Source of the DNA: a virus
Taxonomy: Duplodnaviria > Heunggongvirae > Uroviricota > Caudoviricetes
DNA length: 10,389 nucleotides
Virus record (IMG/VR): IMGVR_UViG_2711768019_000005
Reading direction: 5' to 3' (one strand)
The position numbers and the translations under genes were made by a program. The notes under the pieces are model-generated. The model did not search any database, had not been told where the DNA came from, and saw nothing but the letters and a program-made list of their open reading frames with translations. This document shows positions 1,816 to 6,231 of this stretch, one piece after another (position 1 is the stretch's first letter; the number at the start of each line of letters is the position of its first letter).

Positions 1816-2186
1816 TGCGCCATGAGTTTATTTTACCTTATCCGCCGACGGTGAATACTTACTGGCGACGTCGTGGCAGCACATATTTTGTATCAAAAGT
1901 TGGTGAGCGTTATCGCCGTGATGTGACGCTAATTGTTCGCCAGCAGCGGCTGAAATTAAACCTGTCCGGAAGGCTGGCGATAAAGATTATTGCAGAGCCA
2001 CCGGATAAGCGCCGTCGTGACCTGGACAATATCCTGAAAGCACCACTGGATGCGCTGACGCATGCCGGACTACTCATAGACGACGAGCAGTTTGATGAAA
2101 TCAATATTGTGCGCGGTCAGCTCGTTCCTGGTGGGCGACTGGGCGTGAAGATTTATGAAATCACAGGTGATAACGATGGCGCGTGA
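1815..2186 (+). CDS. rusA: RusA-family Holliday junction resolvase
   Basis: 123 aa with the RusA signature: [45 protein letters not shown], and [11 protein letters not shown], which parallels E. coli RusA (PDRRRRDLDN…DDAQV). Sits in the usual nin-region position upstream of Q. Confidence 0.9.
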
Positions 2187-2562
2187 TATTCAGCAGGTTA
2201 TGGAACGGTGGGGGGCTTGGGCTGCAAACACTCATGAAGATGTATCCTGGGCGTCGATCGCTGCTGGTTTTAAAGGGTTAATTCCGTCGAAAGTGAAATC
2301 ACGCCCTCAGTGTTCTGATGATGATGCAATGATAATTTGTGGCTGTATGGCCCGGTTGAACAAGAAAAATCAGGATTTGCACGATTTGCTGGTGGATTAT
2401 TACGTAGGTGGAATGACTTTTATGAGTCTGGCACGGAAACATGGGTGTTCGGATACCTGTATTGGCAAGCGCCTGCAGAAAGCGGAAGGGGTTATTGATG
2501 GCATGTTGATGATGCTTGATATCCGGCTGGAGATGGACAGATACGTAGAACGAATTATGTAG
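2176..2562 (+). CDS. late-gene antitermination protein Q (QuuD / phage 21-type Q family)
   Basis: Track ORF 2155..2562; the likely start is ATG 2176 ([18 protein letters not shown]…), overlapping the rusA stop as ATGGCGCGTGA. Cysteine motif [16 protein letters not shown] and resemblance to DLP12 QuuD as remembered. A late promoter follows 5 bp after the stop. The alternative start at 2155 is not excluded. Confidence 0.85.
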
Positions 2563-2566
2563 GTGC

Positions 2567-2596
2567 TTGACCAGACACATTGTCCGGGGCTATATT
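2567..2596 (+). promoter_or_regulatory. candidate late promoter PR' (with overlapping Q-utilisation site)
   Basis: TTGACC at 2567-2572, a 17-18 nt spacer, then CTATAT/TATATT at 2590-2596, starting 5 bp after the Q stop. This is the same placement as lambda PR'. An inverted repeat cgccag-N6-ctggcg at 2604-2621 lies in the initial transcribed region. Confidence 0.5.
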
Positions 2597-2657
2597 CCTC
2601 ACGCGCCAGCAAAATCTGGCGTCGGGATTGGAACCCCGGATAGAGACCGCGACAGAC

Positions 2658-2682
2658 ACACGCCGCGAGCGTGTTTTTTATT
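2658..2682 (+). terminator. rho-independent terminator, candidate tR' ending a short PR' leader RNA
   Basis: Stem acacgc (2658-2663), loop cgcga, stem gcgtgt (2669-2674), followed by TTTTTTATT. About 55-80 nt downstream of the predicted PR' start. Confidence 0.55.
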
Positions 2683-2871
2683 GTCGTATGCACGCGCACA
2701 TCTGAATTATGGTGGGGCGCATGGGGGAGCTGAAAAGCTCGCCGGTCGGTTTCCCGGTAGTTCCAACCCTGTGCGTCTCACCACCCGATGATTGGAACCT
2801 GACGGTGTTGACAGTTTCAGGTTTGCAGTTTACATTTCCCCGCGGTGCTCAAAACACCTCGAAAGCGGTAT

Positions 2872-2899
2872 CCACACCCGATAGCCATGTGGTTTTTTT
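2872..2899 (+). terminator. second terminator-like hairpin with T7 run
   Basis: ccaca (2872-2876) pairs with tgtgg (2888-2892) around an 11-nt loop, followed by TTTTTTT at 2893-2899. Weaker than the first hairpin. Confidence 0.3.
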
Positions 2900-3042
2900 G
2901 TGTCCAGAATTCTTGGTTTATGACCGGGTGTGCGGCTAATACAATACCAGCAATGGAAATACGCCCGCCGACTTTCGACGGTTTTGAGCGCCCGGTCACC
3001 CTCTCAAAAGGGGTAAATCAAAATATTCGAAAGGACATGTCT

Positions 3043-3606
3043 ATGAATCGCACGTCTATTGAAAAACTCCCGTCACTTACGCATAACCATCTTCCTGTCA
3101 TGACAACAGAGCTGCTGGCTGATTTGTACGGAACAGAGCGCCAGCGTTTGACAAACAATTTCAATCGAAACAAAGAACGGTTTATAGAAGGTAAACATTT
3201 TTTCCTGATAGAAGGTGATGCGTTACGAGAGTTGAAGAACGAAAACTCTTTAAGAGTTTCTGTGAAAATTGCCCGTAACGTTCGCTCCCTCATCCTCTGG
3301 ACAGAACGTGGCGCAGCCCGTCACGCCAAAATGCTCGAAACCGATCAGGCGTGGGAAGTGTTCGAAAAACTGGAAGACTGTTATTTCAACCAGAAACAGC
3401 CACCAGCGGCACAAAACACATCTATCGAAAATGATGGATGCGCATTACTGAGCCACTTCGATAAACACGGTCAGGTTGAGTTCACGGAAAAGGTACCCGC
3501 CGATGCGATGGTATGTACTCTGGAACGGTTTAAATTTTATCTGGAGCAACACGGGTGGATCGTTGCCCGTAAAGAGCAACTGGTGGAGCGGTTGATGCGG
3601 TTTTAA
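3043..3606 (+). CDS. ORF6N-domain protein (KilA-N/Bro-N-related putative DNA-binding or antirepressor-like protein)
   Basis: Track ORF 2845..3606 starts with GTG; AAGGA at 3031-3035 precedes ATG 3037/3043 (MNRTSIEKLPSLTHNHLPVMTTELLADLYGTERQRLTNNFNRNKERFIEGKHFFL…), which resembles the ORF6N domain. Flanked by terminators at 2872-2899 and 3683-3707. Confidence 0.7.
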   Translation: MNRTSIEKLPSLTHNHLPVMTTELLADLYGTERQRLTNNFNRNKERFIEGKHFFLIEGDALRELKNENSLRVSVKIARNVRSLILWTERGAARHAKMLETDQAWEVFEKLEDCYFNQKQPPAAQNTSIENDGCALLSHFDKHGQVEFTEKVPADAMVCTLERFKFYLEQHGWIVARKEQLVERLMRF

Positions 3607-3682
3607 AAATTTTTTCCGAAAACTTTACGATCGTAAAAAGTTGAATATCCTGTTAAGAGTGGTTACTACGCCACACAGCTTA

Positions 3683-3707
3683 AACCCGCCGATGAGCGGG
3701 TTTTTTT
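3683..3707 (+). terminator. rho-independent terminator after the ORF6N gene
   Basis: cccgc (3685-3689), loop cgatga, gcggg (3696-3700), then TTTTTTT at 3701-3707. Confidence 0.7.
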
Positions 3708-3757
3708 ATACCTGAAAAACGGCACAGGACGTTAAACGTGCTGGTGGTCAGATGAGT

Positions 3758-3786
3758 TTGCAGATGTGATGACATATGGTTATTAT
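3758..3786 (+). promoter_or_regulatory. candidate sigma70 promoter for the tRNA cluster
   Basis: TTGCAG at 3758-3763, 17-nt spacer, TATTAT at 3781-3786, about 10 nt upstream of the first tRNA 5' end at 3796. Confidence 0.35.
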
Positions 3787-3795
3787 TCTGCCTCC

Positions 3796-3872
3796 GGCCC
3801 TTTAGCTCAGTTGGTCAGAGCGAGCGACTCATAATCGCCAGGTCGCTGGTTCAAGTCCAGCAAGGGCCACCA
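3796..3872 (+). tRNA. tRNA with anticodon CAU, ileX/ileZ-like (tRNA-Ile2 lysidine type; would be read as Met by anticodon alone)
   Basis: Manual cloverleaf: acceptor GGCCCTT/AAGGGCC, D-arm AGCTCAGTTGG, anticodon loop CTCATAA, T-arm GGTTCAAGTCC, encoded CCA. Close to E. coli ileX as remembered. Confidence 0.85.
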
Positions 3873-3873
3873 A

Positions 3874-3950
3874 CCACCACTAGCTCATCCGGATAGAGCA
3901 TCAACCTTCTAAGTTGACGGTGCGAGGTTCGAGTCCTCGGTGGTGGGCCA
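3874..3950 (+). tRNA. tRNA-Arg (anticodon UCU; reads AGA/AGG)
   Basis: Acceptor CCACCAC/GTGGTGG, D-arm TAGCTCATCCGGATAGAGC, anticodon loop CTTCTAA, T-arm CGAGG-TTCGAGT-CCTCG, discriminator G plus CCA. Begins 1 nt after the preceding tRNA. Confidence 0.85.
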
Positions 3951-3952
3951 GC

Positions 3953-4028
<76 letters not shown>

Positions 4029-4031
4029 TAT

Positions 4032-4106
<75 letters not shown>

Positions 4107-4723
4107 GCGAGATTTGAGACGAAGGTTGTTATTTGCACTGACACAATATTGTGTGGGAATGTCTGACTCCTTACCATCTCCTGTTCTGTGATGTTGTTTT
4201 GTTGCAGTTCCAGTGCTCTTTTTTCAGCACCAGAATGGTGCATTGTCGGTCAGGTTACGTAGTGAACCTCTGGCAGGGGACTGATGATTCATCATTCTGG
4301 TGTTGTAAATATCTCTTCGGACAACTTACAAAATATTCTAAGCAAACCCCGGGAACACACTCTTAACTGCCTTGGCTGGCGGTTTTTTGTACAGTGCTCG
4401 GTATGTGTGAGCTGGAAATCAGATTTTGCATGGACTGGAATCATGCTGTTATTTAGGGGCGAAGAACTGGCTTTTTCTTCCGCCTTCTCACCAGTAACGA
4501 TTAGAAAAATAATGAAATGCCCCCCTCCGGGGAGGAGGACCGTAGAAAAAAGGACCCGCCAGCAAAAACATTGGGGATGAACAGCTTTCGCTACTCAGAT
4601 TGCTGGCGGGTAAAGTTCCTCATGAATTAAGAATGCTACGCGATCTTTTTTAATGGAAATGAAAATTATTGTCAATTAGTCGTGCGTGTTTTTTCATACA
4701 ATATTGGTAAAGGTGATTCAGGA

Positions 4724-5250
4724 CAGTCATCGGTTCGTCTGAGAATGACGTGCAACTGCGCACGCGACACCCGGAGACAACGGCTGACTAAGCTTACTCC
4801 CCATCCCCGGGCAATAAGGGCGCGTGCGCTATCCACTTTTTTGCCCGTCCATATTCAACGGCTTCTTTGAGGAGTTCATTTTCCATCGTTTTCTTGCCGA
4901 GCAGGCGCTGGAGTTCTTTAATCTGCTTCATGGCGGCAGCAAGTTCAGAGGCAGGAACAACCTGTTCTCCGGCGGCGACAGCAGTAAGACTTCCTTCCTG
5001 GTATTGCTTACGCCAGAGAAATAACTGGCTGGCTGCTACACCATGTTGCCGGGCAACGAGGGAGACCGTCATCCCCGGTTCAAAGCTCTGCTGAACAATT
5101 GCGATCTTTTCCTGTGTGGTACGCCGTCTGCGTTTCTCCGGCCCTAAGACATCAATCATCTGTACTCCAATGACTAGTCTAAAAACTAGTATTAAGACTA
5201 TCACTTATTTAAGTGATACTGGTTGTCTGGAGATTCAGGGGGCCAGTCTA
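4724..5250 (-). mobile_element. IS2, internally truncated copy: intact left end (IRL at 5250), complete insC, first ~70 bp of insD, missing the rest of insD and IRR
   Basis: The reverse complement of 5160-5250 reads TAGACTGGCCCCCTGAATCTCCAGACAACCAGTATCACTTAAATAAGTGATAGTC…, the IS2 left terminus. IS2 homology continues through insC into insD and stops at 4724, where the sequence diverges from IS2. Confidence 0.85.
4794..5159 (-). CDS. insC: IS2 transposase OrfA (InsC)
   Basis: Track ORF 4794..5204 (-); the true start is the ATG at 5157-5159 ([56 protein letters not shown]…), which matches IS2 InsC (121 aa) as remembered. Confidence 0.9.
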
Positions 5251-5252
5251 GT

Positions 5253-5273
5253 AAGGCTGCGAGAGGTGAATAA
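5253..5273 (+). pseudogene. remnant of holin gene (phage 21 S21 pinholin-like), last 6 codons only
   Basis: Directly after the IS2 IRL, aag gct gcg aga ggt gaa taa encodes KAARGE-stop, the same as the S21 C-terminus (…REDRRKAARGE) as remembered. Its TAA overlaps the endolysin ATG (TAATG), as expected at an S-R junction. The rest of the holin gene is absent. Confidence 0.45.
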
Positions 5274-5770
5274 TGTCGCCATCATTACGCAAGGCTGTTG
5301 CAGTTGCTATTGGTGGCGGGGCTGTTGCTATAGCATCTGTGTTAATCACTGGCCCAGGTGGTAACGATGGTCTGGAAGGTGTCAGCTACATACCATACAA
5401 AGATATCATTGGTGTATGGACTGTATGTCACGGACACACCGGAAAAGACATCATGCTCGGTAAAACGTATACCGAAGCAGAATGCAAAGCCCTCCTGAAT
5501 AAAGACCTTGCCACTGTCGCCAGACAAATTAACCCGTACATCAAAGTCGATATACCGGAAACAACGCGCGGCGCTCTTTACTCGTTCGTTTACAACGTGG
5601 GCGCTGGCAATTTCAGAACATCGACGCTTCTTCGCAAAATAAACCAGGGCTATATCAAAGGCGCATGTGACCAGCTATGTCGCTGGACATATGCTGGCGG
5701 TAAGCAATGGAAAGGGCTGATGACCCGTCGTGAGATTGAGCGTGAAGTCTGTTTGTGGGGGCAGCAATGA
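5273..5770 (+). CDS. SAR endolysin (phage 21 R21 / DLP12 RrrD-like lysozyme, T4 lysozyme fold)
   Basis: 165 aa. N-terminal Gly/Ala-rich signal-anchor-release segment [20 protein letters not shown], then lysozyme motifs [10 protein letters not shown]…[11 protein letters not shown]…[17 protein letters not shown] lies 6 nt upstream of ATG 5273. Confidence 0.9.
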
Positions 5771-6231
5771 GCAGAGTCACCGCGATTATCTCCGCTCTGG
5801 TTATCTGCATCATCGTCCGCCTGTCATGGGCTGTTAATCATTACCGTGATAACGCCATTACCTACAAAGAGCAGCGCGACAAAAACGCAAGAGAACTGAA
5901 GCTGGCGAACGCAACCATTACTGACATGCAGCAGAGACAGCGTGATGTTAATGCACTCGATGCTAAATACACGAAGGAGTTAGCTGATGCGAAAGCTGAA
6001 AATGAAACTCTGCGCGCTGATGTTGCCGCTGGTCGTCGTCGGTTGCACATCAAAGCAGTCTGTCAGTCAGTGCGTGAAGCCACCACCGCCTCCGGCGTGG
6101 ATAATGCAACCAGCCCCCGACTGGCAGACACCGCTGAACGGGATTATTTCACCCTCAGAGAGCGGCTGATGACGATGCAGATGCAACTGGAAGGGGCACA
6201 GGAGTATATCCGCACTCAGTGCATTAAGTAG
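5767..6231 (+). CDS. Rz: Rz i-spanin
   Basis: Track ORF begins at GTG 5755; ATG 5767 overlaps the endolysin stop (ATGA). N-terminal transmembrane segment [14 protein letters not shown] followed by a charged coiled-coil periplasmic domain, about 154 aa. Confidence 0.85.
5987..6169 (+). CDS. Rz1: Rz1 o-spanin lipoprotein, embedded in the +1 frame of Rz
   Basis: [24 protein letters not shown]…: signal peptide with lipobox (VVGC) and a proline-rich mature region ([19 protein letters not shown]). AAGGAG at 5974-5979 lies 7 nt before ATG 5987. Fully nested within Rz. Confidence 0.75.

Follow-up and report, generated by a model that had tools for sequence, protein, structure and literature searches.

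What is the role of a small gene that sits between the late antiterminator gene Q and the tRNA genes of a lambdoid prophage, and how is its expression kept in check? This question is raised by the open reading frame (ORF) at positions 3043-3606, plus strand, of the IMG/VR record IMGVR_UViG_2711768019_000005 (Caudoviricetes). The whole stretch of 10,389 nucleotides (nt) that was analysed is called the window in the following; it represents the replication-to-packaging part of a lambdoid prophage of the Shigella sonnei type. An earlier annotation, here referred to as the sequence-only reading, regarded the ORF as ORF6N-domain cargo in the slot next to the late promoter PR′, where Shiga toxin (Stx) phages carry stxAB, bracketed by its own terminators and of unknown function. 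Our analysis makes it likely that the ORF encodes an AnrP-type induction regulator from the ORF6N branch of the Bro network, which is silenced by an antisense RNA encoded in its own leader. What is shown here by computation is the ORF with its domain, its homology to AnrP, the matches to RNA families and, as described below, the covariation of three sites.

The ORF runs from ATG 3043 to the stop codon TAA 3604-3606 and encodes 187 amino acids (aa). The suspected ORF6N domain was recovered in the profile search, in which the Pfam family PF10543 matched residues 13-97 (E=8.8e-21, 74.4 bits, gathering cut-off 27.8), and PHROG 2379, annotated as 'anti-repressor', matches the protein end to end (E=4e-85). 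An identical protein is catalogued as 'ORF6N domain-containing protein' of Shigella sonnei on at least 1000 contigs. NCBIfam gave no match for the ORF, a phmmer search of the PDB sequences gave none for the protein, and the best hit in a Foldseek fold search of the PDB was no better than E=0.65. The start at 3043 is preferred over ATG 3037, because it is kept as ATG across 29 homologous leaders and lies 7 nt behind the AGGA Shine-Dalgarno motif, compared to 1 nt for ATG 3037.

The protein shares 49% identity over 184 of 187 aa with AnrP (STM2616, likewise 187 aa) of the prophage Gifsy-1 (E=6e-58). This homology and the same genomic slot remove the gene from the class of unknown function, since AnrP was shown to induce the prophage (PMC4825925), and together with the PHROG match they favour the 'antirepressor or other regulator' that the sequence-only reading had listed among its candidates. 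The activity of AnrP and IsrK in Gifsy-1 is taken from the literature: transcription from the isrK promoter yields an isrK-orf45-anrP message that stays translationally silent, the short IsrK RNA turns on the translation of orf45 in trans and thereby that of anrP via translational coupling, and AnrP expression raises the mRNA of the antQ operon and induces Gifsy-1 (PMC4825925). The gene order in Gifsy-1 is Q (PF06323), isrK, orf45, anrP, tRNA-Arg and lysis genes. When the gene content at this position was compared among related prophages, as had been proposed, an ORF6N gene behind Q was found not only in Gifsy-1 but also in E. coli EC12, where it encodes 187 aa, and in E. coli VL40, where a DUF1133 Q-like gene is followed by the ORF6N gene, the same four tRNAs as in the window and a holin gene. 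The Q proteins of the window and Gifsy-1 are unrelated (PF06530 versus PF06323). The ORF in the window is indeed placed between Q/PR′ and the lysis genes, the holin gene lying approximately 1.2 kb downstream of the ORF in an intact relative. No complete E. coli genome carries more than 80% of window 2500-4200.

How the gene might be controlled was analysed on the 480-nt leader between Q and the ORF, in which an Rfam scan gave four elements, all above the gathering score. The leader and the gene contain the following features:

2567-2596, plus strand: promoter-like site P1, TTGACC-18-TATATT, from a consensus scan; equivalent of the isrK promoter
2590-2642, plus strand: c4-a1b1 RNA, Rfam RF03163, 50.1 bits (cut-off 46.7)
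2603-2679, plus strand: isrK RNA, Rfam RF01394, 77.5 bits (cut-off 50)
2705-2788, plus strand: C4 antisense RNA (the 'orf45'/STnc1160 region of Gifsy-1), Rfam RF01695, 71 bits (cut-off 45)
2709-2939, plus strand: orf45-like ORF of 76 codons with in-frame ATGs at 2709 and 2721, from the ORF list
2808-2836, plus strand: promoter-like site P2, TTGACA-17-TACATT, from a consensus scan; predicted transcription start near 2844
2847-2865, plus strand: upstream boxes a1 GCTCAAAAC (2847-2855) and b1 TCGAAAG (2859-2865), from a complement search
2872-2898, plus strand: short hairpin CCACA/TGTGG, then a run of seven T; 5-bp helix in the alignment
2922-3005, plus strand: small RNA (sRNA) of the sRNA-Xcc1 type, Rfam RF02221, 77.4 bits (cut-off 53), E=4e-14, model positions 1-87
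3018-3035, plus strand: downstream boxes a2 TCAAAA (3018-3023) and b2 TCGAAAG (3027-3033), from a complement search and the alignment
3043-3606, plus strand: ORF6N-family, AnrP-like antirepressor-type gene, 187 aa, from Pfam, PHROG and homologues

Between the C4-type RNA and the ant gene, the window and EC12 contain approximately 240 extra nt, holding the second promoter-like site and the Xcc1-type RNA, which the corresponding stretch of VL40, phage Nil2 and Gifsy-1 does not have. The −35 element TTGACA and the −10 element of P2 occur at a fixed distance in most of the 29 distinct Xcc1-type leaders that were aligned for the pair counts. The Xcc1-type RNA consists of a closing stem, two hairpins and a CACCC tail, and the C4 model (RF01695) has no match on it. 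The loop of its second hairpin forms box b′, CTTTCGA (2972-2978), which is the reverse complement of TCGAAAG in both b1 and b2, and the single-stranded box a′, GTTTTGAGC (2981-2989), complements a1 as well as a2. Downstream, b2 overlaps the Shine-Dalgarno sequence AAGGA (3031-3035). In the minimum free energy (MFE) fold of the leader 2844-3050, a1b1 is paired with b′a′ in cis, which is, judged by analogy, the equivalent of the silent 'structure A' described for isrK (PMC4825925). The 5-bp helix of the hairpin 2872-2898 is 97.9% paired over the 29 leaders with two compensatory pairs and its T run is invariant; the hairpin scored under the threshold of the terminator scan. It is probably a leaky terminator releasing an a1b1 RNA of approximately 55 nt, as an analogue of the short IsrK.

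The loop and both of its boxes change together. Already among the first five loci no two loops were alike in sequence, and in every case both boxes had changed to match. The code of EC12 is CTACTGA/TCAGTAG. A scan of viral contigs for the conserved core (a 16-mer) resulted in 80 scorable sites, 57 of which have a 7-nt b′ that is exactly complementary to both b1 and b2. With a single exception, the sites without exact matches also lack an a1 box, hence these unmatched sites are regarded as chance occurrences of the 16-mer in unrelated DNA. Altogether, 13 loop types with a full three-way match were found, and a fourteenth matches b1 only; when loops were compared with the boxes of wrong loci, 0.8% matched upstream and 0.25% downstream. 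In the alignment, a1:a′ forms nine invariant pairs. The b1:b′ duplex is 100% paired (slid controls 23-46%); five of its seven pairs carry two-sided changes (71 cells), and one-sided changes do not occur. The b′:b2 duplex is 99% paired, again with five of seven pairs compensatory (67 cells; slid controls 33-55%). The RNA itself is conserved as a structure: its closing stem is 100% paired with three compensatory pairs, and the closing stem, hairpin 1 and the short hairpin 2872-2898 taken together are 98.8% paired with six compensatory pairs. Box b2 abuts AGGA in every loop type, and the ATG follows 7-10 nt further on. The co-varying boxes follow the a/b-box logic of the C4 RNA of phage P1.

Such units are not restricted to the window. 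The Xcc1-type insert occurs in 163 of 5426 complete E. coli genomes ahead of differing genes, for example a BRO-N gene in a DNA-polymerase-encoding phage, an ORF6N gene adjoining xis/int, or antB of Stx2c-type phages, which is immediately preceded by a C4 unit and the ORF6N gene belonging to that unit, antA. The genes behind the Xcc1-type locks encode proteins with ORF6N, Bro-N, Phage_pRha or KilA-N N-terminal domains, some of them with P22_AR_C; they are members of the domain-swapping 'Bro network' of antirepressor-like proteins (PMC10111431). According to the Nil2 record (AJ413274, 5001-6951), antA/antB is a single ant gene interrupted by a retrotransposon. What is seen in Nil2, and in EC4115 (1953-3885), looks instead like two complete units, namely IsrK/C4 with antA (ORF6N), followed by a promoter, an Xcc1-type RNA and antB (ORF6N plus P22_AR_C). 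Genomes of Xylella fastidiosa are reported to have five Xcc1 homologues arranged in tandem with approximately 380-nt spacing, and matches to Xcc1, isrK and C4 that adjoin each other (PMC12189769), so that the stacking of such RNA units may be widespread. On balance, we lean towards the view that the sRNA-Xcc1 family represents a cis-encoded lock of the C4 kind, with a 7-nt loop code in at least 13 variants among the sampled loci, an upstream decoy box and a Shine-Dalgarno box, which gates antirepressor-type genes of four N-terminal families and, going by a published observation, symE toxin genes in Xanthomonas; it would provide RNA-based heteroimmunity across prophages, with two locks of different families stacked in the window.

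The other lock of the leader is the IsrK/C4 unit directly after Q. Promoter P1 begins 5 nt past the Q stop codon (2562), where PR′ is expected, and a terminator follows. Its −35 element TTGAC, its −10 element and the GGGGCTATATTCC stretch are conserved after three types of Q and also after ninE in Stx phages. Upstream of 134 P1-type sites on viral contigs we found NinE (60), PF06530 Q (35), DUF1133 Q-like (30), PF06323 Q (2) and other genes (7). When the spacers of promoter P1 were compared with the Q families, to see whether P1 is PR′ with a Q-binding element, they were specific for each upstream-gene cluster, but those of the Gifsy-1 (PF06323) and DUF1133 contexts are nearly identical, and co-inheritance explains the rest. 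In Gifsy-1 (34240-34355), the −35 element TTGACA of the isrK promoter shares nucleotides with the Q stop codon TGA. By analogy, the short IsrK may be the counterpart of the short late transcripts 6S of lambda and StxS, and CAAAAT, which is transcribed first, could be a sigma-70 pause element. The IsrK-type RNA (2590-2679) ends in a rho-independent terminator with its stem at 2658-2674 and a T run to 2679, as found by terminator scan and folding.

The C4-type RNA (2705-2788) folds with an MFE of −44.9 kcal/mol (z=−5.1), and its b′ box GTTCCAA (2760-2766) complements TTGGAAC at 2628-2634 (b1) and 2792-2798 (b2); Nil2 and Gifsy-1 have the co-varied set ACGCCAA/TTGGCGT. The complement search in this unit resolved the b boxes and no a-type pairing. 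Gifsy-1 gives Rfam matches to c4-a1b1, isrK and C4 in the same order, its orf45 coinciding with the C4 match; therefore, IsrK corresponds to the a1b1 element of the immI scheme of phage P1, and orf45 to the C4 RNA region. In VL40, Nil2 and Gifsy-1 the orf45 stop and the ant start overlap as ATGA, the ant ATG lying approximately 35-55 nt after C4. The IsrK/C4 unit of the window has lost its own coupled ant gene; it may now be only a transcriptional input, or a source of RNAs acting on other prophages.

Among the published systems that come close, the isrK-orf45-anrP-isrJ locus of Gifsy-1 (Hershko-Shalev et al. 2016, PMC4825925) has the gene order of the window: both contain Q, IsrK with a leaky terminator, C4/orf45 with two in-frame AUGs, a 187-aa ORF6N protein, tRNA and lysis genes. 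Besides the extra unit, the window differs by an unrelated Q, by the missing orf45/ant overlap and by the absence of isrJ, since no RF01393 match at E<=10 was obtained in 2500-3800, whereas isrJ of Gifsy-1 scores 100 bits. In the immI operon c4-icd-ant of phages P1 and P7, from which the repression by C4 is known, C4 represses icd/ant (Citron and Schuster 1990; NC_005856). The annotated order of phage P1, i.e. promoter, a1, b1, c4, a2 and b2 on the ribosome-binding site (NC_005856), is the same in the Xcc1-type unit of the window, and in both cases specificity comes from short complementary boxes that differ among related phages. However, an icd-like ORF is missing between b2 and the gene in the window, the gene-adjacent RNA belongs to RF02221 instead of RF01695, and the protein is without the ANT/KilAC domain (PF03374) of Ant1. 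Ant1 of phage P1 was also considered as a relative of the window protein, and no similarity was found; 'P1-like' therefore covers the control logic and not the protein.

The Stx-phage genes antA-antB of Nil2/2851 and the 933W-type 'Ant' in the nin region share homologous DNA with the window over the IsrK/C4 leader and the N-terminal two-thirds of the ORF, and both types of RNA unit are present there. In these phages, the units follow ninE and precede Q, and every RNA unit comes with a gene of its own (C4 with antA, Xcc1 with antB), whereas the window stacks both units ahead of a single gene downstream of Q. sRNA-Xcc1 itself (Rfam RF02221; Xanthomonas campestris, Chen et al. 2011) is treated in the literature as a virulence-linked sRNA that acts in trans and has no known target (PMC12189769). 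The window RNA matches the model over its full length and lies directly 5′ of a gene on the same strand, as in the Xanthomonas cassettes and the APSE phages, where sRNA-Xcc1 upstream of an ORF6N gene was remarked in passing in one paper. In contrast to the Xanthomonas description, it has flanking cis targets that co-vary with the loop, ahead of antirepressor-type genes in enterobacterial prophages. For such flanking targets of sRNA-Xcc1 no description was found in a literature search that missed most subscription journals; a review of phage sRNAs from 2025 treats IsrK and c4 as separate items and is silent on Xcc1. IsrK/AnrP and C4 are already known, and the gene adds a member to the AnrP/ORF6N antirepressor group in a known type of locus; the stacked second lock and the co-varying Xcc1-type code are probably new.

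The following sequence of events can be proposed, in which we infer that the Xcc1-type RNA blocks translation, that a1b1 serves as a decoy, that the promoters are active and that Q-modified polymerase reads through. Transcripts starting at P2 (approximately 2844), or reading through from promoter P1/IsrK just after Q, would carry the Xcc1-type RNA of approximately 85 nt. Its b′ and a′ boxes would pair with a2/b2 over the Shine-Dalgarno sequence and block ribosome binding, like C4 does on icd/ant of phage P1. The a1/b1 boxes are stronger 5′ copies followed by a putative weak terminator. The antisense RNA would be bound by short transcripts of a1b1, or by these boxes in cis, so that the lock opens, in the manner of the short IsrK in Gifsy-1. 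A burst of read-through from the IsrK promoter, and possibly by Q-modified polymerase, might also titrate the Xcc1-type RNA, and Q-dependent expression of the ORF is plausible. The 7-nt b box would serve as a specificity code differing among phages, and in the window the complete Xcc1-type unit is stacked behind a canonical IsrK/C4 unit without its own ant gene. Once made, the protein would relieve the repression of the early operon and lead to prophage induction, as AnrP does.

Other explanations need to be weighed against this RNA-locked induction regulator. One is plain late-operon cargo in the manner of stxAB, the view of the sequence-only reading. The ORF would then be a moron without own regulation, expressed only by Q-modified polymerase that comes from PR′ and passes the flanking terminators, and its function would be unrelated to the lysis-lysogeny decision, for instance host takeover. 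The placement directly behind Q, with the tRNAs and lysis genes following, fits well to it, as does promoter P1 with its following terminator at the place of PR′, and IsrK-type promoters directly follow three different Q families. The cargo-slot analogy does explain the position, but not the biology, because lock-plus-gene modules also exist outside the Q slot, namely after ninE upstream of Q in Stx phages, by xis/int, and in the non-lambdoid context of the DNA-polymerase-encoding phage. Bracketing by terminators likewise holds in part: hairpins exist at 2658-2674 and 3682-3703, but the upstream one is the terminator of the IsrK-type RNA, approximately 370 nt before the ORF, and two structured RNAs and a second promoter-like site lie in between. 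With its own conserved promoter-like site at 2808-2836, the IsrK/c4-a1b1, C4 and sRNA-Xcc1 elements and thus a complete RNA lock between terminator and ORF, the gene is probably more than cargo carried along by PR′, and the homologue in Gifsy-1 acts in prophage derepression. We therefore regard plain late cargo as quite unlikely. It is unlikely, too, that the protein acts as a transcription factor that recognises specific DNA sequences, as an activator or by competing at operators, instead of binding and inactivating the repressor.

A role in defence or anti-defence, as trigger of abortive infection or as counter-defence factor with the lock resembling the antitoxin of a type I toxin-antitoxin system, appears highly improbable. 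Residues 19-106 (3043-3360) are matched weakly (E=1.4e-7) by three PADLOC models for the candidate system PDC-S05, which could be taken in its favour, and sRNA-Xcc1 was found upstream of the toxin gene symE in Xanthomonas integron cassettes (bioRxiv 10.1101/2025.06.18.660453); however, the PADLOC matches are confined to the shared ORF6N domain, the candidate system is unvalidated, and anrP expressed alone was not toxic in Salmonella without the locus (PMC4825925). Finally, the Xcc1 element might be coding sequence of a longer protein starting at GTG 2845 or ATG 2953, its conservation reflecting protein constraint. The frame is open from 2845 through the Xcc1-type RNA (2845-3042), PHROG 35956, a 48-aa 'anti-repressor', matches the upstream translation, some Shigella records have a 217-aa form from 2953, and PGAP starts the BRO-N gene of E. 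coli VL7S7 (3084-3986) inside the element. Nevertheless, the called length is 184-188 aa in most homologues, and a structure-aware model gives the element 77 bits. Helices and b boxes vary by two-sided compensatory changes only, and the genes that follow the element come from four unrelated N-terminal families, in all of which the Shine-Dalgarno sequence and the ATG stand right after b2. On these grounds the longer upstream ORF was rejected as the true gene, and its probability is next to nil; gene calls that start within the Xcc1-type element look like calls made on RNA.

Several points weigh against the RNA-locked AnrP-type regulator that we prefer. The C-terminal domain of the protein is modelled with low confidence (predicted local distance difference test, pLDDT, 55-64), and no Pfam family matches it. 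The duplex at the Shine-Dalgarno site (−21.9 kcal/mol) was reached by 23 of 500 shuffles, a modest excess only, compared to −36.3 kcal/mol and none of 500 shuffles for the a1b1 duplex; the much greater strength of the latter fits a decoy or anti-antisense role of the 5′ boxes, like that of the short IsrK. Moreover, the orf45-like ORF ends 103 nt 5′ of the ORF6N start and the stop/start overlap of the Gifsy-1 type is lost; as this coupling is absent, the published Gifsy-1 mechanism is not transferable unchanged. For the enterobacterial Xcc1-type lock, including that of the window, RNA production, processing and repression are predictions from the sequence. Furthermore, the holin gene of the prophage in the window has been lost to an insertion sequence (IS) fragment, so that the lock module may no longer matter for this particular prophage.

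Antirepressors can switch prophages on without the SOS pathway and cross-induce neighbouring prophages. Such switching is of importance for the spread of toxin and virulence genes in Shigella, Shiga toxin-producing E. coli and Salmonella. If the proposed lock is true, many genes annotated as 'ORF6N/Bro/Rha/KilA-N domain-containing protein' would represent RNA-locked induction switches and not unknown cargo, a widespread Rfam family would gain a testable function including an explanation for its tandem arrays, and a short sequence code should set which prophages silence each other's antirepressors. There is also a problem for annotation, since the protein start is at times called within the RNA element, and PHROG family 35956 appears to be the translated Xcc1-type RNA. 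The stacked lock and the Xcc1-type code are the part worth an experiment.

The neighbourhood of the module in the window comprises the following features:

before Q, at the start of the gene order: DnaB-like helicase and RusA
2155-2562, plus strand: Q-type late antiterminator gene, Phage_antitermQ PF06530 (E=2.7e-52), PHROG 79 Q-like
3682-3709, plus strand: rho-independent terminator 3′ of the ORF, from a terminator scan (hairpin 3682-3703) and folding
3796-4106, plus strand: tRNA array CAT, Arg-TCT, Thr-TGT and Gly-TCC, from ARAGORN and Rfam tRNA
after the tRNAs, in this order: IS fragment, lysozyme, Rz/Rz1, HNH endonuclease, terminase subunits, portal protein

The Q gene upstream and the tRNA array downstream, both named in the sequence-only reading, are thereby confirmed. 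In public gene calls, Q starts at 2176 and has 128 aa, and Shigella-type loci contain a 128-aa PF06530 gene. The nin regions of EC12 and VL40 harbour a hok/sok type I toxin-antitoxin system a few kb upstream of Q (2480-2650 in EC12, 2664-2838 in VL40; Rfam sok, 100-118 bits). The first tRNA (3796-3872) is called Met (CAT) by ARAGORN and tRNA-Ile by PGAP in the matching four-tRNA array of VL40, which has the same order; it is probably of the lysidine-modified Ile2 type that is common in the tRNA arrays of Stx phages. A promoter-like site, TTTGCA-18-TATTAT, is located ahead of it at 3757-3786. Between the tRNAs and the lysis genes lies a 98-aa ORF (4284-4580) that has no Pfam or PADLOC match and is called as a gene in Shigella-type loci; because of a terminator-like hairpin inside it (4365-4384), it may be non-coding.

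At 4724-5254, a 531-bp fragment of the IS3 family (IS2-like) replaces 251 bp of otherwise 99.9%-identical Shigella-type loci. The lost 251 bp include nearly all of the 71-aa holin gene (PF04971) that is normally situated 5′ of the lysozyme gene, and the prophage copy in the window is probably lysis-defective. The lysozyme (region 5273-6231 of the window) has a Gly/Ala-rich hydrophobic N-terminus resembling that of signal-arrest-release endolysins, and the usual partner of such an enzyme would be the lost pinholin-type holin. Within Rz (5755-6231), an Rz1-like ORF (5987-6169) is nested out of frame.

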